Source: Actinomycetota bacterium (GTDB taxonomy: Bacteria; Actinomycetota; UBA4738; HRBIN12). Taken from it: DNA of 63,367 bases. Where the stretch lies: NCBI GenBank assembly GCA_050998695.1, contig JBPCPX010000032.1, positions 1-63,367 of the forward strand, written 5' to 3'. The notes beneath the pieces were generated by a model. It was not told the origin of the DNA. It saw only the letters and a list, made by a program, of their open reading frames with translations, and made no database searches. Shown piece by piece: positions 1,326 through 13,163 of the stretch. Within the stretch, counting starts at the first letter, position 1, and each line of letters opens with the position of its first letter. The position numbers and the translations under genes were made by a program.

Positions 1326-1751
1326 GTGAAGATCGAGGCCTCGATCGAGATCGACAAGCCGATCGCCGACGTATGGCGCTGGTACGCCGAAGATCACGTC
1401 CGCAACCATCCGCGCTGGAACCCAGACCTGGAGCTCGAACAGATCTCTGACGGTCCGATAGGGGTCGGCACGAAGATCCGGCGGCGGAACACGATGGGGG
1501 AGACTCCCGTCGAGGGCGAGATGGAGGTGACCGAGTTCGACCCGCCCCGCGCGATGGGCGTTTCGATCAGCGACGGGGATTCGGAGACACTCGGCCGGGG
1601 CACGCTCGAGGAGCGAGGACCCGAGCGGACCCTGCTGACCGTCTCGGCCGACATCTCGGGGCTCGATGACCCTGAGACGGCGCAGTTCGTCAAGACCATG
1701 ATGGGCCGGAGCCTCGCCAACATGAAGACCATGATGGAAGCGGAGATCTAA
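1326..1751 (+). CDS. SRPBCC (polyketide cyclase/dehydrase-like) family protein
   Basis: In frame with ORF 1158..1751. The likely GTG start at 1326 gives VKIEASIEIDKPIADVWRWYAED..HPRWNP, a typical SRPBCC N-terminus. Confidence 0.6.
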   Translation: MKIEASIEIDKPIADVWRWYAEDHVRNHPRWNPDLELEQISDGPIGVGTKIRRRNTMGETPVEGEMEVTEFDPPRAMGVSISDGDSETLGRGTLEERGPERTLLTVSADISGLDDPETAQFVKTMMGRSLANMKTMMEAEI

Positions 1752-1994
1752 GGGGTCCGCTTCACGTTCGAACCGCGATGACCGCTCCTGCCGGCCGAGG
1801 AACCTTCCTGGCGTCCAGCACGTGCCCCTCGCGCCGATGCGAGGTGGCTACCGGTGTCGTTCGACATCGACCCCACCCTTCGTCGTCCGATGCGACCGCT
1901 CGCTCGTCCGACCCGGACCGGACGACGACCGTCGCGACCAAGGCATCAGTGTTCTGTGCATTGTGTATTCGTGTCAAGGCACAGCGACTGGCGG

Positions 1995-3104
1995 CTACCG
2001 GGCTGCCTCCCCGAGGTGCTCCGCCATCCAATCCCCTGCGAGCGGCCGGTACTTGTACGGGATGTTGTTGCAGACGTGGTTCCCCTCCGGGTACATCACG
2101 AGCTCGGCGTTGGGGGCCTCACCCGCGACGCGCTCGGCATGCTCGTACGGAACCAGCCGGTCCTGGCGGCCGAAGATCGCGAGGAACGGCTGCGTGACCT
2201 TCGGCAGCACTCCCGTGAGCGTCATCTCGTTCGCGATCGCCTGCGCTTCGTCCAGATCCTTCGCGCCGGAATGGTGCATGAACGTCTCGCGCGAGATCGA
2301 TGGACGATCGGCGATCAGCTCGCCGAACGAGTGGGCGCCGCCGATCGCGCACACGGCCTTCACGCGCGGCTCGAACGCAGCGGTCCGGGGCGCGTAGTAC
2401 CCGCCGAGTGACACGCCGACGACGCCGACCCGGTCGAGGTCGAGGTCGAGGTCGCTCCTGCCGGCCAGGTGGTCGAGCAGCGCGATCGGACCCACCTCGT
2501 AGTCCGCTCGGATGTGGGTGTGGTAGCCGGTCTCGCCCTGGCCCGGCCCGTCGAGCGAGACCGTGGCCATCCCGCGGGCGAGGAACACGTCCTCCCATCG
2601 GAAGAACTCCTCCTTCGTGGAATCCAGGCCGGGGAGCAGGAGGACGAGCGGCGGGCGCTCGACGCCCGGTGGACGACGTAGGTTGGCCACCATCTGCGCG
2701 CCCTCGAACGGGATCTCGAGGCGCTCCGCGGTCGGGTCGAGCAGCCGGTGGGTTTCGCGGATGGCCGACACGGCTCGATCCGAGGCGTCGCGATGCTTGT
2801 CGAGGTCGACCATCCACACGAACTTCGCGAAGTGATAGGAGAGCGCGGCGCGGACCCAGGCGTCGCCGGCCGAGAGCAGTCGGCCGCGTTCCTCGGCCTC
2901 GCGCGCGAGGTCGGCGTGCATGTCGCCGTTCGCGCACCAGGCGTCCAACCAGTCCTCCCATCGCTCGAGGCCGCTCGTGATCCTCCCGAAGTCGCTTGGG
3001 TCGACACCCTGCGAGGTGAACCGTGGTGCCCAGTTCGCCGTCGCGGCCTCGATCCGCTCGTCGCTCATCTCCACACACCTCCCGATCGGGGTGGACACGG
3101 TCAT
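1995..3104 (-). CDS. alpha/beta hydrolase fold protein
   Basis: 369-aa ORF with nucleophile elbow GVSLGG and LLLPGLDSTKEE. The C-terminal ..GNHVCNN fits a catalytic His region. The start may instead be the internal MSDERIEA. Confidence 0.75.
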   Translation of the reverse strand: MTVSTPIGRCVEMSDERIEAATANWAPRFTSQGVDPSDFGRITSGLERWEDWLDAWCANGDMHADLAREAEERGRLLSAGDAWVRAALSYHFAKFVWMVDLDKHRDASDRAVSAIRETHRLLDPTAERLEIPFEGAQMVANLRRPPGVERPPLVLLLPGLDSTKEEFFRWEDVFLARGMATVSLDGPGQGETGYHTHIRADYEVGPIALLDHLAGRSDLDLDLDRVGVVGVSLGGYYAPRTAAFEPRVKAVCAIGGAHSFGELIADRPSISRETFMHHSGAKDLDEAQAIANEMTLTGVLPKVTQPFLAIFGRQDRLVPYEHAERVAGEAPNAELVMYPEGNHVCNNIPYKYRPLAGDWMAEHLGEAAR

Positions 3105-3370
3105 CGCCTCGACGTCGCCGGAGAGGCGATCGAGGCCGTGGTCCTAGTGGTCCTTAGTGTCCCCGGGTGCGGCCGCACACGACAAGGCACCCGAGTGCGG
3201 TCTGTCTGGCGCGCATGCCCTGGTCGCTCTCAAGCCTCCTCCCGCTCTGGTAAAGCTTCGGGAGATGATCAAGGCAGCAGAAGATCGTCAAGGAGCGCAT
3301 CCGGGAGCACGAGGCACAAACAGATCGTTGAGGGATGGCGGACCAGCGCTGCGACACGTACCGTGTGCCG

Positions 3371-3598
3371 ATGGCGACCTACGAGTACCTCTGCCTCTCC
3401 TGCGAGCAGCCGTTCGAGGAGCGCCGGCCCATGACCGGTGATCTCGTCAGGACCGCGATGGCCTGCCCTTCGTGCGGGAGCGACCGAGTGCGCCGTCGAT
3501 TCTCGTTCTCCGCGTCGATCGGGAGCACAGGCGCAACGGCGACCGCCGAGCCCACAAGTGGGGGCTGCTGCGGCGGGGCCTGTGGCTGCGGCAACTGA
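3371..3598 (+). CDS. FmdB-family putative regulatory zinc-ribbon protein
   Basis: MATYEYLCLSCEQPFE...CPSCGS (CxxC..CxxC) plus a Cys/Gly-rich tail CCGGACGCG. The start is taken at the internal ATG of ORF 3335..3598. Confidence 0.8.
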   Translation: MATYEYLCLSCEQPFEERRPMTGDLVRTAMACPSCGSDRVRRRFSFSASIGSTGATATAEPTSGGCCGGACGCGN

Positions 3599-3632
3599 CG
3601 GATCCGGCGTCGCGAACGGCGTCCGCCGTGGG

Positions 3633-4135
3633 GTGACCGAGCCCGCCCACGTCGGGGACGAACGCACCGCCTTGCTGGGGTTCCTGCAGAGGCAGCGCGA
3701 CCTGGTCGCGTGGAAGATGCGCGAGGCGTCCGACGAGACGCTCGCCTCGGTTCGGATGCCGAGCGGCCTCACCTTGCACGGCATCGTCCGGCACCTGGAG
3801 AACGTGGAACGCTCGTGGTTCCGGGAGTTCTTCGGCGGCCAGACCGGATCGCACTTCGACTGGACCGATGAGGATCCCGACGCCGACATGCGAGCCGAGG
3901 GTGTCCCGATGGCCGATCTGCTCGCCGCCTACGCGGCGGAGACCAAGCTGTGCGATGAGGTGATCGCGGCGGCTCCCTCCCTCGATGCCACGGCTGTTGA
4001 TCCGGACGTCACGTACTCGCTGCGCTGGGTCTCGTGCATATGATCGAAGAGACCGGGCGGCACCGCGGCCACATCGACCTGCTACGTGAGCAAGCAGACG
4101 GCGCGGTCGGCGAGGTGCCTCCGGCGGACGCGTGA
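3633..4135 (+). pseudogene. DinB/DUF664-family protein interrupted by a 1-nt frameshift near 4031
   Basis: Frame A (ORF 3438..4043) ends ..TYSLRWVSCI*. Frame A-1 continues [24 protein letters not shown]..* (stop 4133-4135). The joined [24 protein letters not shown] is the hallmark DinB_2/DUF664 C-terminal motif. Confidence 0.7.
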
Positions 4136-6415: not shown

Positions 6416-6931
6416 TTACAGGTAGCGGGCGGCGGCCATCCCGATCACGGCGACGATCAGCAGGGGGACGATCGCCTTGCCGGCAGCGATGCCGCGACGC
6501 TGGAGCGCCTGGAGCTGTGCGGCCTGCTCGGGTGTGGGAGGGCCGCCGCTCGCAGCGACCGCACGTCCGATGGCGAGGTTCTCCATGATCATGGGGCGAA
6601 CGACCGAGCCGCCGATCGCGAACGCAGCGATCGCGCAGAGGGCTCCCACCGTGAGTGAGACGCCGGGAGCCGAGCCGATCCAGTCCGCGTCGAGTCCGTC
6701 GGAGACGCGCCAATACATCAGGAGTCCGGCGAGCACGGTCAGGCCGGCCGCGCCCAGCACGAAGTCGATCAACCGCTTGCGTCCGGCCAGGTGCATCATG
6801 AACGGTCCGGCGGCCGGGCCGATCTCTCGAGCCGTCGGCTGGATGAACAGCAGCGTCGTGAGCGCCGCGCCCACCCAGAAGACCCCGGCCAGGATGTGCA
6901 CGATCCGCAGCACCACCATGTAGGTGTCCAT
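6416..6931 (-). CDS. integral membrane protein of unknown function (about 4 TM segments)
   Basis: 171-aa ORF with several hydrophobic stretches (VHILAGVFWVGAALTTLLFI, VLGAAGLTVLAGLLMYW, VGALCAIAAFAIGG, IVPLLIVAVIGMAAA). No family recognised. Confidence 0.5.
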   Translation of the reverse strand: MDTYMVVLRIVHILAGVFWVGAALTTLLFIQPTAREIGPAAGPFMMHLAGRKRLIDFVLGAAGLTVLAGLLMYWRVSDGLDADWIGSAPGVSLTVGALCAIAAFAIGGSVVRPMIMENLAIGRAVAASGGPPTPEQAAQLQALQRRGIAAGKAIVPLLIVAVIGMAAARYL

Positions 6932-7026: not shown

Positions 7027-7989
7027 CTACCGGTCGCCGATCGCCGGCAGGAGTTCGCTCTTAGCGAACTCGAGGAACTCCTCTTGCCGCGGCCCCACCT
7101 GATGCAGGAAGACGTGATCGAACCCGACGTCTTCGAACTCGCCGATCTTCTCGAGGATCGGGTCGGTGCCGGGACCGCACACCACCTTCTCGGCGACCGC
7201 GTCGGCAGTGACCAGCTCGGCGATCAGCTCGAAGTGCTGCGGCTCCGCGAGCTCCACGCTGAGCTCACCCGGGGCGCACGTGTTGGGCCACCACTCGAGT
7301 GCCTCCTGCTTCGCCTTCTCCTCGTCGGTGCCATAGCACACCGTCAGCTGGCCGTAGACGGGGTTGCCCTCGCCCCCCGCGTCCTGGAACTCCTGCACGA
7401 GCTCGGCGTCGGGCTTGGTCGTGATCAGGGCGTCGCCGCTCCGGCCGGCGAGCGCGGCCGCCTTCGGGATCGAGGCCGCCACCGCGATCGGGGGCGAGGT
7501 CTCGGGCAGGGTGTAGAGCCGGGCGCGATCCACGGTGAAGTGGTCCGTCCACTCGGTGACGAGCTCACCGGTCCAGAGCCGGCGGATCAGCTCGATCGCC
7601 TCCTCGAGCATGTCGAGGCGCTCGTCCGGATGGGGCCATCCCATGCCGACGACGTGTTCGTTCAGCTGTTCCCCGCTCCCGAGACCCAGGATGAAGCGGT
7701 CGGGGAGGAGGGCCGCCGTGGTGGCCGCCGCCTGGGCGATGATCGCCGGATGGATCCGGATCGTCGGGCAGGTGACCGCGGTCATGATCGGCACGTGCTC
7801 CGTCTTGACGGAGAGACCGCCGAGGATGCTCCAGACGAGCGGACTCTGGCCCTGCCGCGATGTCCAGGGATGGAAGTGGTCCGAGATCGTCAGGAAGTCG
7901 AAGCCCGACTCCTCCGCGATCCGCCCGTACAGGAGGAGGTCCCCGGGAGCCTGCTCCTCGCTCGACAGCGAGTAGCCGATCTGCACCAT
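7027..7989 (-). CDS. LLM-class F420-dependent oxidoreductase (G6PDH-like family)
   Basis: MVQIGYSLSSEEQAPGDLLLYGRIAEESGFDFLTISDHFHPW..SPLVWSILGGLS..VTCPTIRIHPAIIAQAAATTA..FILGLGSGEQLNEH matches the luciferase-like monooxygenase F420 G6PDH-family pattern. The start is taken at the internal ATG at 7989. Confidence 0.75.
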   Translation of the reverse strand: MVQIGYSLSSEEQAPGDLLLYGRIAEESGFDFLTISDHFHPWTSRQGQSPLVWSILGGLSVKTEHVPIMTAVTCPTIRIHPAIIAQAAATTAALLPDRFILGLGSGEQLNEHVVGMGWPHPDERLDMLEEAIELIRRLWTGELVTEWTDHFTVDRARLYTLPETSPPIAVAASIPKAAALAGRSGDALITTKPDAELVQEFQDAGGEGNPVYGQLTVCYGTDEEKAKQEALEWWPNTCAPGELSVELAEPQHFELIAELVTADAVAEKVVCGPGTDPILEKIGEFEDVGFDHVFLHQVGPRQEEFLEFAKSELLPAIGDR

Positions 7990-8033
7990 GGGGGCATCTT
8001 GTCCGCGTCGGAAGGAGCCCAAACCTCCGGCAG

Positions 8034-8756
8034 TCAGGAGTGCTCCGGGCTCTCGCCCACGACCACCCGGAGGAGGACACCGTTGGGCGCCGGCCCCCCG
8101 GTTCCGTAGCCGACGCGTTCGATCGTCATCGCCGGGGCCGCGCCGAAGCCGGAGGCGGCGACCGCGAGGATCGCCACGCCGGTGGGCGTCACCAGTTCGC
8201 CCTCGGCGTCCTGCGGTTCCACGGGGATCTCTCGGAGCAGCTCGAGCGTCGCGGGCGCGGGGACGGGGATACGGCCGTGGGCGGTCTCCACCGTCCCGTG
8301 CCCGAACGGCAGCGCTGAGGCAAAGATCCGCTCGATCCCGAGGTCCTCCGATGCGAGGGCGGTGCCGACCACCCCGACGAATGACCGCAGCGAGCCGACC
8401 TCGTGGAACCGAACGGCGGCCGTCTCCGATGCATGAACGCGGGCCTCGGCCTCGGCGAGTCGTCGGTAGACTCCGAGCGCGATGTCACGGGCCGCATCCG
8501 GGAGGGAGGCGGCAGTGATGAGCGCTTCCATGTCGCTGAGCCCGCGCCCGACTTGCTCGTCTCCGCCGACGATCGAGACCGTCCTCGCGCGGAATGGGCC
8601 GACCATCGTGTCGTCGAGCCTGATACGGGAACGGTCCACGCCGAAGACACCGAGGCGGGCTGCAAGCTCCTCGACGTCGGCGCCCGCGTCGAGGAGCGCC
8701 GCTAGCGTCGCCCCTCCGCTGATGCCGCGGGCGCAATCGAAGTAGGCGACCCTCAT
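8034..8756 (-). CDS. larC: LarC-like nickel insertion protein, N-terminal (LarC1-like) domain only, 240 aa
   Basis: MRVAYFDCARGISGGATLAALLDAGAD..AEAEARVHASETAAVRFHEVGSLRSFVGVVG..HGRIPVPAPATLELL..ELVTPTGVAILA..VGYGTG matches the LarC/DUF111 N-terminal domain. The ATG at 8756 overlaps the larB stop (ATGA). Confidence 0.7.
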   Translation of the reverse strand: MRVAYFDCARGISGGATLAALLDAGADVEELAARLGVFGVDRSRIRLDDTMVGPFRARTVSIVGGDEQVGRGLSDMEALITAASLPDAARDIALGVYRRLAEAEARVHASETAAVRFHEVGSLRSFVGVVGTALASEDLGIERIFASALPFGHGTVETAHGRIPVPAPATLELLREIPVEPQDAEGELVTPTGVAILAVAASGFGAAPAMTIERVGYGTGGPAPNGVLLRVVVGESPEHS

Positions 8757-9400
8757 CCCCGGATCATCCGGTGGGCCGCCATCGCTGCTCCCAAACCGTT
8801 GTCGATGTTGACCACCACGACTCCGGGGACGCAGGAGCTGAGCATGCCGAGCAGGGCGGCAAGGCCATCGAACGTCGCGCCGTAGCCGACGCTCGTCGGC
8901 ACCGCGATCACGGGAGCCGGGACGAGGCCGGCGACGACCGAGGGCAGCGCACCCTCCATCCCGGCGACCACGATCACACAATCCATCCGCTCGAGGGTCG
9001 GCACCCGCTCGAGGACGCGGTGGACGCCGGCGACACCGACGTCGGTGATCCGCTCGACCGACAGCCCGAACGATTCCGCGGTGACCGCGGCCTCCTCCGC
9101 GACCGGAAGGTCCGACGTGCCGGCGGACACGACCGCGACCGTCCGGTGCCGATCGGTGGCCGGTCTGACCACGATCAGGTTCGCGATCTCGTGGTGGCGA
9201 GCGTCGGGGTGCTGCTCCGCGACGGCTCGCACCTGCTCGGCGGTGGCACGCGACACGAGGATCGGCCGGACATCGGCTCGGATCAGGGCGTCGACGACCG
9301 CCAGCACCTGTTCCGGAGTCTTCCCCGGTCCGTAGATGACCTCGGGTTGCCCCGTCCGCGCCTCGCGGCCGGTGTCCGGCTGCACCTGTGGCTCCTCCAA
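8753..9400 (-). CDS. larB: LarB, nickel-pincer cofactor biosynthesis protein (PurE-like pyridinium-3,5-biscarboxylic acid mononucleotide synthase)
   Basis: VAVVSAGTSDLPVAEEAAVTAESFG..VGVAGVHR..VIVVAGMEGALPSVVAGL..PVIAVPTSVGYG is the LarB/AIR-carboxylase-like signature. Confidence 0.8.
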   Translation of the reverse strand: MEEPQVQPDTGREARTGQPEVIYGPGKTPEQVLAVVDALIRADVRPILVSRATAEQVRAVAEQHPDARHHEIANLIVVRPATDRHRTVAVVSAGTSDLPVAEEAAVTAESFGLSVERITDVGVAGVHRVLERVPTLERMDCVIVVAGMEGALPSVVAGLVPAPVIAVPTSVGYGATFDGLAALLGMLSSCVPGVVVVNIDNGLGAAMAAHRMIRG

Positions 9401-9449
9401 GGCTCGGATGTTAACGGGAGCGACGTGGCGACCGGGCTAGACTCCGTCG

Positions 9450-10316
9450 GTGGCCCTCGACCTCCGCGCGGCACGGCACAAGGTCACCGAGCTCCGGCGG
9501 ATCGTGAGCGGCATCCCGGACCCGGCGGTGGCGTTCTCCGGAGGCGTTGACAGCTCGCTCCTGGCGGTCGTCGCTCGGGATGTGCACGGAGACGACATGC
9601 GCGCGGTGATCGCGGACTCACCGTCCTTGCCCCGGAACGAGCTCGCGGCGGCGATCCGGTTCGCGGACGCCCACGACCTGCCCCTCCGTGTGGTCCGCAC
9701 CGCGGAGTTGGAGGACCCCCGATACCGTTCGAACGGATCCGACCGGTGCGCCTTCTGTAAGGAGGCGTTGCTGGAGGCCGTGATGACCGACCCGCTCCTC
9801 GGCAGCCGGACGATCCTGCTCGGCGTGAATCTGGATGACCTCGCGGATCATCGGCCCGGCCAGCGAGCGGCGCGGGACCGTGGTGCTCGGTTCCCGCTCG
9901 TGGAAGCCCGCTTGGGCAAGCACGAGGTCCGGGCACTCGCGCAGGATTTCCACCTCGAGACGTGGGACAAGCCGGCGGCCGCGTGTCTCGCCTCGCGATT
10001 GGCCTACGGTGTACCGGTGTCGGAGGAAGCGCTCAACAGGATCGAGCGGGCCGAGGCGTCCCTGCGCAGCCTCGGTTTCGCGGGGGACGTGCGCGTACGG
10101 GATCAGGGTTCGGGATTGGCTCGGATAGAGGTGCCACCGGAACGTTTCGAGGACCTGCTCGCTCGCCGGACGGAGGTGATCGAGGGGATGCGCGAGGCCG
10201 GATTCCGCTACGTCACCCTTGACCTGGAGGGGTTCCGCTCGGGGAGCCACAACCTAACGATCTCCACCGAAGAGCTCCGGACCCGCCTCCCTCGGAGCCC
10301 CACGGACGTGCGATGA
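9450..10316 (+). CDS. larE: LarE, ATP-dependent sulfur transferase (PP-loop ATP pyrophosphatase)
   Basis: PP-loop AFSGGVDSSLL. Cysteines in CAFC (codons 9747 and 9756) and the AACLASR cysteine (aa 179). Divergent from larB across a 49-bp spacer. Confidence 0.8.
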   Translation: MALDLRAARHKVTELRRIVSGIPDPAVAFSGGVDSSLLAVVARDVHGDDMRAVIADSPSLPRNELAAAIRFADAHDLPLRVVRTAELEDPRYRSNGSDRCAFCKEALLEAVMTDPLLGSRTILLGVNLDDLADHRPGQRAARDRGARFPLVEARLGKHEVRALAQDFHLETWDKPAAACLASRLAYGVPVSEEALNRIERAEASLRSLGFAGDVRVRDQGSGLARIEVPPERFEDLLARRTEVIEGMREAGFRYVTLDLEGFRSGSHNLTISTEELRTRLPRSPTDVR

Positions 10317-10372
10317 TGCGGGCCGTCGGAGGGGTACGGACGACCCGTCCCCGGCGCTGAGAGGGAGGACGC

Positions 10373-10981
10373 ATGCCGAGGATCTATTCGATTCGCCCGA
10401 CATGGTCGCTGAAGGGACGCCGTTTCCAGGGGGTGCGGGGCTTCACGGGGAAGCCGTCCCATCCGCCGCTCACGGATTTCCCGATCGTGTGTTACACGCT
10501 CGCGGCGGTGTTCGACCTGATCTCGTACTTCTCGGCCTCCTCGGATCCGAAGGCTCGTGACTTCTTCGTGGCGGCCACGTTCGTGATGGTGGCCGGGTAC
10601 GCGGTCGGACTCCTCGCGGCGATCACCGGCTTCTTCGACTGGTGGAAGGGGATTCCGCGCGACCGGAAGAGCGGACCGATCGGCAGGGCGAAGCACACGC
10701 AGGTCTGGCGCACGATCAACTTCCACGCGACCGTGATGATCGTGGTCACCGTGATCACGCTCGTCGACATCATCCTGCGCGTCAGCAACTTCCAGGACGG
10801 ACAGACGAGCGGCCTGTGGCTCGTGTTGTCGCTCATCTCCGCGGCCGGCGTCGGGTTCGGCGCGGCCTACGGCGGAACGCTCGTGTTCGAGTACGGCTTC
10901 AACGTCGAGAACGTCGAGGAGGCCTGGAAGGAGTCCGAAGAGGATCACGTCCGTCTCCCTCGAGGCGGCTCCTCCTCGTAG
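10373..10981 (+). CDS. DUF2231 domain-containing membrane protein
   Basis: GKPSHPPLTDFPIVCYTLAAVFDLIS followed by further TM helices, typical of DUF2231. Confidence 0.6.
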   Translation: MPRIYSIRPTWSLKGRRFQGVRGFTGKPSHPPLTDFPIVCYTLAAVFDLISYFSASSDPKARDFFVAATFVMVAGYAVGLLAAITGFFDWWKGIPRDRKSGPIGRAKHTQVWRTINFHATVMIVVTVITLVDIILRVSNFQDGQTSGLWLVLSLISAAGVGFGAAYGGTLVFEYGFNVENVEEAWKESEEDHVRLPRGGSSS

Positions 10982-10989
10982 GCGTCTGG

Positions 10990-11520
10990 ATGGCCGCGGA
11001 TCGACCGCTCGGCTACTGGACCCAGACCTCGGTGACGTCGGCCGCGTCGCCGCAGGTCGTCTACGACACGATCGCGGACCTCCGGAACCATCTCGACTGG
11101 TCCGGCGAGCGCGCGAGCAGCGAGACCTTCAAGCTCCTGTCGATCGAGGCGCCTGAGGGCCCCGCTGCGGTCGGGACCGCGTTCACGTCCTCCGGCTCCG
11201 CCGACAACGGCACGTTCCACGACCGCTCGGAGGTGACGATGGCCACCAGCCCGAGGACGTTCGTGATCGAGACCGACGCGCACCTCGATCGCACGCGCGG
11301 GAAGCCATGGGACGCGCACTTCTCGCATCGGTACGACATCTCGCCCGAAGGCCAGGGGTCGCGAATCACGTACACCGAGACGATCGAGCGCGTGAACTAT
11401 GTCCCGTACTGGCTGCAGCCCGTGGTGCGCTCGCTCTTCAAGGTCTACGTCAACCGCGCGGATCGCAAGCAGCTGGCGAACCTCGCGCGGCTCGCCGAGG
11501 AGCGTTCGTCGGGCAGCTGA
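10990..11520 (+). CDS. SRPBCC family protein
   Basis: Internal ATG of ORF 10642..11520 gives MAADRPLGYWTQTSVTSAASPQVVYDTIADLRNHLDWSG.., which is SRPBCC-like. Confidence 0.55.
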   Translation: MAADRPLGYWTQTSVTSAASPQVVYDTIADLRNHLDWSGERASSETFKLLSIEAPEGPAAVGTAFTSSGSADNGTFHDRSEVTMATSPRTFVIETDAHLDRTRGKPWDAHFSHRYDISPEGQGSRITYTETIERVNYVPYWLQPVVRSLFKVYVNRADRKQLANLARLAEERSSGS

Positions 11521-12048
11521 TCAGAATTCGAGGGTGCAGTTCTCGCAAACGAAGCCCCTGCTCCGGAAGTTCAGGCTGTGCCCGCCGCAGCGGTGGCATC
11601 GTCGGCACGTCCCGCCGGACGCGCAATCGATCGGATCGGTGGTCGCACCCGGCTGATCCCAGGTCGTCGCCGGCTCCGACGGCCTCGGCAGCTGGATGGA
11701 CAGGAGCGTCATCGGTCCGTCCCCGCTCAGGAAGCCGTGGGGGTGTGCGGTCGCCCGGCCGATCACCAGGCTCCCGTCCAGAGGCACGGGATTGTCGGCG
11801 AGTAGCGCCTTCCCCTCCCCGGCGAGGACCACCACCCACTCCTCCGAGTCCGGATGCGTGTGCGCGAAGGCGGGCTGGTTCGCGGTGAACCCCTGGAGGG
11901 ACAGGTAGAACTCGTCGCCCTGCGAGATCGGGACCCGGCGGAACCCGGAGGGACACAGGGCCAGGACCTCCTCGGGATGCATCGCGAACACCCCGAGGTT
12001 GTCGAGCACCTCCGCCAGGTCGCCGACCGAGTGCGTCATCGGTAGCAT
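11521..12048 (-). CDS. cupin domain protein with C-terminal zinc ribbon
   Basis: Cupin metal-site pattern AHTHPDSEEWVVVLAGEG...HPHGF. The C-terminus is CASGGTCRRCHRCGG..FVCENC. Confidence 0.6.
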   Translation of the reverse strand: MLPMTHSVGDLAEVLDNLGVFAMHPEEVLALCPSGFRRVPISQGDEFYLSLQGFTANQPAFAHTHPDSEEWVVVLAGEGKALLADNPVPLDGSLVIGRATAHPHGFLSGDGPMTLLSIQLPRPSEPATTWDQPGATTDPIDCASGGTCRRCHRCGGHSLNFRSRGFVCENCTLEF

Positions 12049-12130
12049 CCTGTCGTATCACGGGCCGTTCGACCAACCGAGGGCCGTCCGTTCGATCGAC
12101 CGTGGGACGCGGCCCGGAGAGCGAGGACGT

Positions 12131-12550
12131 ATGACCGATCGACACGTCGTCGTCGACCACGTCCTGTTCGTCGTGGAGGATCTTCCCGCCAGCAGGCGTC
12201 TGTACACCGCCGCCCTCGCTCCCCTCGGGATCGAGGAGCTGAACGAGGAACCCAACTGCGTCGGGTACGGTCGGCAGGACCTCGATGACTTCGCGATCTG
12301 CGAGGGCTCGCCGGTCACGACCGCCGCGCATGTGGCGTTCGACGCGGCCGACCGGGAGTCGGTCGACGCGTTCTTCGAGGCCGCGCTCGCCGCGGGCGCG
12401 AGCGCCCGCGGCGAACCGGGCGTCTGGGTCCAGTACTCCGATCGGTACTACGGGGCGTTCGTGAACGACCCGCACGGCAACAACGTCGAGGCGGTCTTCC
12501 ACAGTCCTGAAGCGATCAGGGACGCACCGGTACGACCCGGCGTCCCGTAG
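12131..12550 (+). CDS. VOC (glyoxalase/bleomycin resistance/dioxygenase) family protein
   Basis: MTDRHVVVDHVLFVVEDLPASRRLYTAALAPLG..AHVAFDA..YYGAFVNDPHGNNVEAV. Confidence 0.7.
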   Translation: MTDRHVVVDHVLFVVEDLPASRRLYTAALAPLGIEELNEEPNCVGYGRQDLDDFAICEGSPVTTAAHVAFDAADRESVDAFFEAALAAGASARGEPGVWVQYSDRYYGAFVNDPHGNNVEAVFHSPEAIRDAPVRPGVP

Positions 12551-12576
12551 AGCGGGCCGCCGAGCCAGAGACAGAT

Positions 12577-12602
12577 GAAGGAGGGGCCGGAGCCCCTCCT
12601 TC
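12577..12602. terminator. perfect 11-bp stem / 4-nt loop hairpin between convergent genes
   Basis: gaaggaggggc-cgga-gcccctccttc, read directly. It lies between the stop at 12550 (+) and the stop at 12629 (-). There is no strong U-tract. Confidence 0.45.
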
Positions 12603-12628
12603 ACGCGAGCCCTGCCGATCGAGTGTGG

Positions 12629-13163
12629 TTACCCGAGCAGTCCGATCAGCTGGTTCAGCAGACGGGCCACCGCCGACAAGGTCGCATTGCTGTCGAGCAG
12701 CCCAGCGATACCACACAGCAGATTGCCGAGCAGGTTCCCTGGTCCCGACTCCGCGTCGATGTCGAGCACGATCTTGTCGAGGTGCACCACGAGCCCCAGC
12801 AGATCGAGGTCGAGCGGTCCGAGCTCGAGGTGCAGGATGTCGCAGGTGCCCGACGCCGTCAGCGGAAGTCGGACGAGCACGTCGGTCACCGTGCCGATCA
12901 CGGTGCCGGATGCATCGGTCAGGGTGGGTCCCAGAAAGCGTCCCGACCGCCACGAGCTCGCCGTTCTGCACGACGACCCGATCGAGATCGAACGTCCCAA
13001 CGAACGTTCCACCAGGCAGCGTTCCCGTGACTGGGATGTTGGTGATGTCTGGTGCCGGGGGCGCTGCGATGGCGCTCCCTCCAGTGAACAGCAACATGGT
13101 GCTCATCGCGGTCATCGCGACGAGTGCCGATAGTCTTTCGGCATAGCGAATCACTCCTCCCAT
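12629..13163 (-). pseudogene. secreted protein of unknown function interrupted by a 1-nt frameshift near 12929-12932
   Basis: The signal-peptide-like N-terminus (..LVAMTAMSTMLLFTGGSAIAAPPAPD..GTFDLDRVVVQNGELVAVGTLSG) is in frame of ORF 12516..13187. The continuation (P)TLTDASGTVIGTVTDVLVRLPLTASGTCDILHLELGPLDLDLLGLVVHLDKIVLDIDAE..LLNQLIGLLG* is in the frame of ORF 12629..13012. The start is uncertain (13163 or 13115). Confidence 0.55.

Follow-up and report, generated by a model that had tools for sequence, protein, structure and literature searches.

How is nickel inserted into a pincer cofactor if the LarC protein expected to insert it consists of only one of its usual two domains? This question is raised by the genome of an uncultured soil actinobacterium that contains three genes for building the nickel-pincer (NPN) cofactor, larB, larC and larE. 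The LarC proteins of Moorella thermoacetica and Lactiplantibacillus plantarum are CTP-dependent cyclometallases (EC 4.99.1.12; PDB 12bi-12bl; LarC2 domain, 6BWQ), and LarC is described as the only known biological cyclometallase; mechanistically, its need for CTP and for a second domain still awaits an explanation (PMC13510736). We analyzed a stretch of 63,367 nucleotides (the window) from the actinobacterial genome, whose assembly is a fragmented MAG (2.2 Mb, 178 contigs, 84.55% complete). The lar cassette and its surroundings comprise the following features:

6416-6931, minus strand: membrane protein of 171 aa, outside the cassette, without a Pfam match
7027-7989, minus strand: F420-dependent LLM-class oxidoreductase, 320 aa (TIGR03557, 419.6 bits; cut-off 210.4)
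8034-8756, minus strand: larC, encoding LarC1 only (type A, see below), 240 aa, supported by family matches, alignments and an AlphaFold2 model
8753-9400, minus strand: larB (NF033503, 274.7 bits; cut-off 175)
9401-9449, no strand: spacer between the divergent larB and larE genes, 49 bp, counted from the TTG/GTG starts
9450-10316, plus strand: larE, PP-loop sulfur transferase, 288 aa (TIGR00268, 276.7 bits; cut-off 150)
10373-10981, plus strand: DUF2231 membrane protein (Pfam PF09990), bordering the insertion site on the side away from the LLM gene, outside the cassette

As a first-pass annotation had proposed, the larB stop overlaps the larC start in an ATGA that can be read directly in the sequence, larE diverges across the 49-bp spacer, and a gap of 44 nt separates the larC stop from the start of an LLM-class gene on the same strand; both the coordinates and the gene identities are confirmed by the sequence and the family matches. 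The spacer is presumably a shared promoter region. A scan for the sigma-70 consensus gave no match in it, which is a weak test in an actinobacterium with 69% G+C.

Judged from their conserved residues, the first two enzymes look canonical. LarB aligns with PDB 7mj0 (E 4.7e-60), including the GTSD and SSC(V)PG motifs, and keeps the equivalents of S127 and C221. LarE carries an SGGVDS motif from residue 30 and the CXXC-C motif defined in PMC9283937 (C100, C103 and C179), whose cysteines place it in the [4Fe-4S] type rather than the sacrificial type. It also matches PDB 5udq and 6b2o (E ~1e-39) and retains the equivalents of S180, R212 and R214, which bind the phosphate of the mononucleotide. An altered substrate of LarB or LarE was considered and rejected, since the only clade-specific change found, relative to LarBs that accompany a full-length LarC, was A222V in LarB.

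The LarC protein of the window is limited to the LarC1 domain. It matches positions 1-235 of the 375 positions of Pfam PF01969 (E 1.7e-68), exceeds the threshold of NCBIfam TIGR00299.2 'nickel_LarC1' (178.6 bits; cut-off 90), and aligns with M. thermoacetica LarC (PDB 12bi; E 2.5e-49) over residues 1-235, end-to-end over LarC1 and with one 1-residue gap. As with the characterized LarCs, its gene comes after larB and has larE as a partner. Unlike them, it terminates with ..LLRVVVGES at the end of LarC1 and thus lacks the interdomain linker, the ~145 residues of the CTP-binding LarC2 domain and the hexamer core. This truncation point was defined by alignment with ten full-length LarCs from the same order, which bears out the length and domain content given to the protein in the first-pass annotation. 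The AlphaFold2 model of the 240-aa protein is a complete, confidently predicted domain (pLDDT 93, pTM 0.92); it returned no matches in a fold search against a PDB library that extended to April 2026 and did not include 12bi, and LarC1 has been reported as a new fold. In L. plantarum, the larC1 reading frame is fused to larC2 by a programmed frameshift, whereas the larC gene of the window has nothing downstream to which it could be fused. Read-through or frameshifting past its TGA stop codon was rejected, given that the post-stop sequences are unrelated between genomes and that no frame contains a LarC2 signal.

The first-pass annotation had also stated that no LarC2 domain is encoded in any frame ahead of the next gene, and this result extends to the whole assembly: an unfiltered hmmsearch of all six frames with a LarC2 profile yielded nothing (best E = 2). 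Searches with PF01969 of 41 and then 201 genomes detected no LarC2 for genomes with the short LarC, and a profile built from a LarC2-only alignment had, among 27 genomes of the genus, a sole match in the separate full-length LarC of one of them (G021). A separate LarC2 gene was thus found neither in this assembly nor in 11 of the 12 genomes of the genus that carry lar genes, some of them assembled into 4-10 contigs. The finding that the first-pass annotation had named as refuting its own reading therefore did not turn up, and the mode of nickel insertion is a genuine question.

The loss of LarC2 is real and old. The same short form of LarC (233-263 aa) is found in at least 112 database clusters (90% identity) that are 50-84% identical to the window protein, with full-length LarCs appearing only at identities of 49% or less. 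These proteins, which we refer to as type A, are monophyletic (UFBoot 100), and their sister group consists of full-length LarCs from the same bacterial family (UFBoot 91). A stop right after LarC1 recurs in 11 genomes and in the database, where more than 100 independent clusters show it. The layout of larE diverging from larB-larC1 is common to 13 loci and is still seen at 47% identity, in locus L128. Three other short LarC1 reading frames (P0135, P0183 and P0266) keep the canonical Asp residues; they lie on short contigs, and their LarC2 parts may be located elsewhere.

The type-A proteins also share a characteristic set of residues. The window LarC keeps E104, H108, H118, E119, H160, E187 and R230/R231; among 116 type-A representatives, E104, H108, E119, H160 and E187 are invariant, and H118 is present in 96. 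Compared with the M. thermoacetica and L. plantarum enzymes, the window protein has replaced D15 by Gly, H116 by Arg, D124 by Arg, D128 by Gly and Y180 by Glu. Across type A, position 124 is Arg in all 116 representatives, position 128 is Gly in 115, and position 15 is Asp in none, whereas canonical LarCs (n=117) conserve D124 and D128 in 100% and 99% of cases, respectively. The substitutions at positions 15, 116, 124 and 128 turn the pocket from acidic to basic. In the M. thermoacetica enzyme (LarC_Mt), E104 is the proposed nucleophile, the H108A, H118A and H160A variants have less than 10% activity left, and D15A, D124A, D128A and every change in the linker markedly reduce activity, with CTP-dependent CMPylation forming part of the accepted mechanism (PMC13510736). 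By the standard of LarC_Mt, type A should thus be crippled. The first-pass annotation was correct about the short LarC itself, but the existence of a whole clade with a remodelled pocket went unnoticed there.

The reading that we tentatively favour is that the type-A LarC, with its remodelled pocket, may insert nickel on its own and without CTP. LarB would produce P2CMN from NaAD, and the [4Fe-4S]-type LarE would provide P2TMN. The nickel step would then be performed by LarC1 alone, with the help of E104 and the three histidines H108, H118 and H160, while its new arginines might grip the 5'-phosphate of P2TMN directly. Nickel could in this way be inserted without a CMP 'handle', such that CTP would not be needed and there would be no phosphoanhydride to hydrolyze. 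A more far-reaching version of this idea, which we regard as conceivable but rather doubtful, is that type-A LarC1 represents a minimal cyclometallase whose arginine-lined pocket forms the Ni-C bond on plain P2TMN, dispensing with CTP, a CMPylated intermediate, the LarC2 hexamer core and the linker. If so, the nucleotide 'handle' would be an accessory to the reaction rather than its essence.

Alternatively, the short LarC may no longer insert nickel into P2TMN and be a relic or a repurposed protein, for instance one that binds or stores nickel through its histidine patch, so that the cassette would yield no finished cofactor or nickel would enter in another way. We consider this scenario unlikely, even though it would readily account for the replacement of three pocket residues whose Ala variants markedly cut LarC_Mt activity. 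It can also draw on a second group of LarC1-only proteins, orphan paralogues of 250-274 aa in sister genera within this actinobacterial family (type B; e.g. G054:C1:221274-221981). These proteins arose by an independent truncation, as they are nested within the main full-length clade (UFBoot 99/100), and differ from type A in that they keep D15, D124 and D128, show ELT(N/T)ATG instead of ELVTPTG, often have changes at H118/E119, carry a C-terminal tail and are encoded away from larB and larE. LarB was found in none of five genomes with type B, so LarC1-like proteins can persist beyond the pathway. In addition, the type-A cassette is patchily distributed. Of 24 genomes sampled from the genus, 14 yielded no cassette, larC1 is frameshifted in G020, and L042 and G011:C110 have both larB and larC1 in fragments, although these disruptions may be MAG assembly errors. 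The genus can do without the cassette, which at times decays. Nevertheless, translation of larC1 is coupled to that of larB, and the 10 of the 24 genomes that contain LarC are precisely those that contain LarB, always with the two side by side. The residues invariant in all 116 representatives likewise argue against a relic, and the replacements are fixed rather than scattered as expected from decay. The dN/dS ratios demonstrate purifying selection on all three genes, with larC1 (0.19-0.30) somewhat above larB (0.10-0.20) and larE (0.13-0.25), and selection on larB and larE would be hard to understand with a dead last step.

Another possibility, which appears improbable to us, is activation in trans by an unrecognized partner, either a LarC2 that has diverged very far or a nucleotidyltransferase with no relation to it, that would supply LarC1 with the usual nucleotidylated intermediate. 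Natural splits between the LarC1 and LarC2 genes do exist, as in L. plantarum, where two reading frames are joined by a frameshift (PMC13510736), and the incompleteness of the assembly leaves room for such a gene. However, the search for LarC2 was negative in 11 lar-positive genomes of the genus, some of them assembled into very few contigs, and the 13 loci, whose surroundings differ, share no further conserved gene next to the cassette. Moreover, the acidic residues lost in type A are those expected to handle a dinucleotide intermediate.

The window indeed contains no LarA, with no Lar_N match anywhere in it, but the implied lack of an enzyme using the NPN cofactor does not hold, because a LarA homologue is encoded on contig C43 (G000:C43; Lar_N E 2.3e-39). 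It aligns with PDB 9q2u across both domains (E 5.3e-26), a member of the single-histidine (Asn) LarA subfamily (PDB 9q2u, 9q3j) in which Lys forms the thioamide link to the cofactor and His acts as nickel ligand. Its GGHK..(16)..H motif corresponds to GGYK..H of 9q2u, so that the cofactor Lys and His are kept; an Asn occupies the position of the second catalytic His, an assignment that is less certain because the alignment is gapped there. This homologue, as a predicted member of the single-histidine subfamily, is the most plausible NPN consumer. It is 92-98% identical between lar-negative and lar-positive genomes, so its need for the cassette is putative.

If the cassette instead made a different pincer cofactor, such as one of the NPAD type that keeps the AMP of NaAD, the substrate would come pre-equipped with a nucleotide handle and LarC2 would be unnecessary. 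An NPAD cofactor is reported to exist (Desguin 2025, cited in PMC13524815), and L. plantarum LarC accepts P2TAD (PMC13510736). This explanation nonetheless strikes us as distinctly improbable, since LarB shows no clade-specific change apart from A222V and keeps its S127 and C221 equivalents, LarE keeps its mononucleotide phosphate-binding residues, and the LarA homologue keeps the Lys for covalent attachment of NPN. An ornithine-cyclodeaminase-like gene (G000:C140), the sole one in the genome, was examined as a candidate user of an NPAD-type cofactor and rejected, as it does not co-occur with the cassette, being present in only 3 of 24 genomes of the genus, one of them lar-negative. Finally, we regard as refuted the notion that the truncation is an artefact, with LarC2 missing through a faulty MAG assembly or a frameshift error, or residing in the unassembled part of this fragmented and incomplete genome, because the stop lies at the identical position in all those independent clusters and genomes, is followed by unrelated sequences and, after only 44 nt, by the next gene, and no frame of the genome carries a LarC2 signal.

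The F420-type LLM oxidoreductase is an incidental neighbour outside the lar system; its use of F420 is a family prediction. The first-pass annotation had suggested a link between the two, a tempting reading that our survey corrects. Orthologues of the LLM gene (74-90% identity) are present in nine genomes that lack the lar genes, none was found in four lar-positive ones, and the gene is non-adjacent in 7 of 13 type-A loci. Furthermore, three genomes (G012, G019 and G023) contain 'empty sites', in which the DUF2231 gene directly adjoins, and diverges from, the LLM and membrane protein genes, without any lar genes; this is the ancestral neighbourhood, and the 171-aa membrane protein gene comes after the LLM gene in every syntenic locus. 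On the basis of the orthologue distribution, adjacency survey and empty sites, the LLM gene was rejected as the cofactor user.

Molybdenum insertases of the Cnx1/MoeA type, like LarC, insert their metal into a nucleotide-activated cofactor precursor (PMC13510736). The two are related by analogy only, with no relation in sequence, and the LarC of the window apparently lacks an activation module altogether. A clade under selection has dropped LarC2 and the linker and replaced three acidic residues reported as required while keeping the proposed nucleophile and the key histidines, and this natural experiment may test whether the CTP-using half is needed. An active type-A LarC would mark out the minimal catalytic unit, and an inactive one would mean that a protein annotated as 'LarC', even one locked to larB and larE, is no guarantee of cofactor synthesis. 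Pipelines that use LarC (IPR002822) as a marker for nickel-pincer cofactors (PMC13524815) would count type-A genomes.

In the window, larE and the larB-larC pair are divergently oriented, and larC is followed by the gene for an LLM-class oxidoreductase:

9450-10316, + strand: larE (TIGR00268, 276.7 bits)
8753-9400, - strand: larB (NF033503, 274.7 bits)
8034-8756, - strand: larC, encoding 240 aa that match PF01969 positions 1-235 of 375
7027-7989, - strand: LLM-class oxidoreductase of the F420 G6PDH-like family (TIGR03557)

The stop codon of larB and the start codon of larC share an ATGA, larB and larE are separated by a 49-bp spacer, and 44 nt lie between larC and the LLM gene, so that the gene arrangement described in the first-pass annotation was borne out in full. 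Its description of LarC as a half-size protein comprising only the N-terminal domain (LarC1) also holds: the sequence ends with ..LLRVVVGES, at a point where, in our alignment, ten full-length LarCs from the same order continue with a linker and ~145 residues of the C-terminal domain (LarC2).

This truncation is a lineage trait rather than an accident. A search of a large protein collection returned no fewer than 112 protein clusters (90% identity) with a length of 233-263 aa that are 50-84% identical to the window LarC, all of metagenomic origin, and full-length LarCs (391-392 aa) appeared among the matches only at identities of ≤49%. Records related to the window genome come from soil. Within the genus, LarC was detected in 10 of the 24 other genomes sampled, nine of which contain the short form alone and one (G021) the short form together with a separate full-length protein. 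The five short larC genes that were read completely encode 235-245 aa, all terminate with TGA and are followed by unrelated sequence. In a phylogeny of the LarC1 region, the short proteins, hereafter referred to as type A, form one clade (UFBoot 100), with two full-length LarCs of their bacterial family as its sister group (UFBoot 91). The order larE<>larB-larC1 is repeated in 13 loci with differing surroundings, including one, in another assembly, whose type-A protein is 47% identical. Pairwise dN/dS values range from 0.19-0.30 for larC1, 0.10-0.20 for larB and 0.13-0.25 for larE, and AlphaFold2 predicts the 240-aa protein to form a complete domain (pLDDT 93, pTM 0.92). Some type-A cassettes are apparently damaged: larC1 of G020 (locus L017, G020:C5:~282016-282728) is frameshifted near residue 183, and both larB and larC1 are fragmented in locus L042, which also lacks the LLM gene, and in G011:C110. 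These lesions could reflect real decay or indel errors in the metagenome-assembled genomes (MAGs).

[quoted passage not shown] LarC2 forms the core of a hexamer and is thought to CMPylate P2TMN, and every change in the linker abolished activity. LarC1 carries a histidine patch, in which each of the H108A, H118A and H160A exchanges left <10% activity, and an acidic pocket, in which E104A, D15A, R71A, E119A, D124A, D128A and E187A all markedly reduced it, with E104 as the proposed nucleophile (PMC13510736). The window LarC aligns with this protein (PDB 12bi) without gaps through residue 221, so that its residue numbering is directly transferable. Among 116 type-A representatives, E104, H108, E119, H160 and E187 are invariant, and R231 (115/116) and H118 (96/116) are largely retained. 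However, position 15 is never Asp, D124 is replaced by Arg in all 116 proteins and D128 by Gly in 115, and Arg and Glu take the places of H116 (107/116) and Y180 (92/116), respectively. By contrast, 117 canonical LarCs from a 50%-identity representative library show 100% conservation of D124, 99% of D128 and 92% of H116, and among the 150 nearest representatives, R124 and G128 are confined to type A. Three carboxylates have thus disappeared from the type-A pocket, and two guanidinium groups have been added. As judged from its sequence, type-A LarC is a LarC1 domain that lacks two defining features of the characterised LarCs, namely LarC2 plus linker and the three acidic residues. The substitutions have settled on particular residues, a pattern that resembles selection for a new state rather than decay.

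We tentatively propose that type-A LarC may act as a stand-alone nickel insertase. In this scheme, R116 and R124 would hold P2TMN directly by its phosphate, and E104 together with the histidine patch would form the Ni-C bond. A CMP handle would not be required, and there would be no phosphoanhydride to cleave. D15, D124 and D128, which we suspect to serve the diphosphate and the divalent metal of the intermediate, could then be dispensable.

It is rather unlikely that the type-A protein no longer inserts nickel, even though the mutagenesis data for the M. thermoacetica protein speak for such a loss. Such a loss is also supported by the existence of a second, independent truncated paralogue in sister genera, which has kept the aspartates in the absence of LarB. 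This LarC1-only family, type B (G054:C1:221274-221981; genera g27, g28, g31, g33 and g44; loci L027 and L029-L039), comprises proteins of 250-274 aa with the C-terminal tail ..PDLRLV.EP.., in which ELVTPTG is changed to ELT(N/T)ATG and D15, D124 and D128 are retained. Its members are orphans, found either in genomes with a complete larB-larC-larE operon elsewhere or with no LarB at all (0/5).

A hidden partner acting in trans is improbable. The source MAG of the window (2.2 Mb, 178 contigs, G+C ~69%) is 84.55% complete, and no frame of this assembly matched a LarC2 profile in an hmmsearch run without filters. When PF01969 was run over 41 relatives and 201 genomes of the family, genomes with a short LarC gave LarC1-length matches alone. 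A profile built from a LarC2-only alignment had a sole match in 27 genus genomes, the full-length LarC that G021 encodes separately (E 2.4e-64); the remaining hits were noise (E > 0.01) that was seen in lar-negative genomes as well. The lar-positive genomes searched include assemblies of 4-10 contigs (G003, G020, G023). Thus, neither the six-frame nor the PF01969 or LarC2-only searches revealed a separate LarC2 gene in these genomes, the finding that would have spoken against the first-pass claim. G021 itself harbors a full-length larB-larC operon as well as a short type-A cassette, and each of these two lar sets includes a LarB of its own (G021:C16:5295-7111; G021:C64:27394-28808).

Synthesis of a different pincer cofactor by the cassette is also improbable, since LarB and LarE look canonical. 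LarB matches its Lactobacillus plantarum counterpart (7mj0; E 4.7e-60) and retains the equivalents of S127 and C221, with A222V as the sole clade-specific difference from LarBs paired with full-length LarC. In LarE, a PP-loop is accompanied by C100, C103 and C179, which make up a CXXC-C motif of the [4Fe-4S] type, and by counterparts of S180, R212 and R214, the proposed binders of the substrate phosphate in L. plantarum LarE. Neither protein appears to point to a different substrate, which argues against an adenine-dinucleotide (NPAD) product. The NCBIfam label of LarE, 'sacrificial sulfur transferase', is probably wrong, because its CXXC-C motif is of the catalytic [4Fe-4S] type. That the short LarC is an artefact, finally, is hardly credible for a form shared by an entire clade.

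The LLM gene, initially linked to the lar cassette, is a bystander. Its orthologues (74-90% identity) occur in 16 of the 24 genus genomes, including nine lar-negative ones, and were not found in four lar-positive genus genomes. It directly follows larC1 in the window, G009, G020, L023 and L041, is separated from it by a methyltransferase gene in L026, and is not adjacent to the cassette in seven cases (G003, G013, G019, G021, G023, L024, L025). In G012, which is lar-negative, and in G019 and G023, whose lar genes lie elsewhere, DUF2231 directly adjoins the LLM and membrane genes with nothing in between; in the lineage of the window, the cassette is inserted between DUF2231 and the LLM gene. 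In metagenomic locus L024 (JGI 3300086397, 8742-12660), ArsP/HMBD permease and Nramp genes lie immediately downstream of type-A larC1. They may provide a link to nickel supply; such metal-related membrane genes were not seen downstream of larC1 in other type-A loci.

The absence of LarA noted in the first-pass annotation is true of the window and not of the genome, whose sole LarA homologue (529 aa) is flanked by acyltransferase and zinc alcohol dehydrogenase genes on contig C43:

G000:C43:~1515-3104 (locus L002:589-2178), - strand: LarA homologue, single-histidine subfamily

Its nearest solved relatives, 9q2u (E 5.3e-26) and 9q3j (E 1.6e-23), are single-histidine LarAs; the Streptococcus plurextorum member of this subfamily holds the nickel-pincer (NPN) cofactor covalently via Lys195 and His211 (PMC12393405). 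With a conserved GGHK motif followed by His 16 residues on, the C43 protein is the most plausible candidate user of the cofactor. Of the 24 genus genomes, 23 encode such a homologue, and the proteins are 92-98% identical both in six lar-negative genomes without larB or larC (G007, G012, G014, G015, G016, G018) and in three of the four lar-positive genomes compared (G023: 90% over a partial match), with an identical Lys...His cofactor-binding motif in all ten. The lar genes diverge far more (44-75% identity for LarC1, against the 74-90% reached by the LLM gene). The cassette, patchy and diverged, thus behaves as a mobile accessory, whereas the putative user is near-universal and conserved and belongs to the core. 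In lar-negative genomes, the LarA homologue may depend on cross-feeding, use another cofactor or have another function. Elsewhere in the window genome, isochorismatase-like, ornithine-cyclodeaminase (OCD)/mu-crystallin-like and enolase-superfamily (MR/MLE) genes lie in a row (G000:C140:1781-4899; locus L127), with the OCD-like gene found in only 3 of the 24 other genus genomes.

Shortened LarCs also occur in other settings. A third shortened kind, second copies reaching only PF01969 positions 311-321 of 375, is found in the same order (families f4 and f7; G027:C278, G030:C132, G036:C33, G040:C55); they lack the last ~55 LarC2 residues, and each genome has a full-length copy elsewhere. On a Logan contig (L141, SRR29605934), gene 3010-3747 encodes a 245-aa LarC1-only protein with canonical D15, D124 and D128 and overlaps larB. 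It is followed by a convergent gene, with no LarC2 adjacent, in a spore-former-like context (CotE, SepF), indicating that short LarCs beside larB exist outside the Actinomycetota as well. Natural clades of LarC1-only proteins were not described in the accessible literature, which does not include three key older papers that may mention them. What is specific to type A is the combination of a complete larB/larE partnership, the genus-wide absence of LarC2 and a pocket in which a charge reversal has become fixed.
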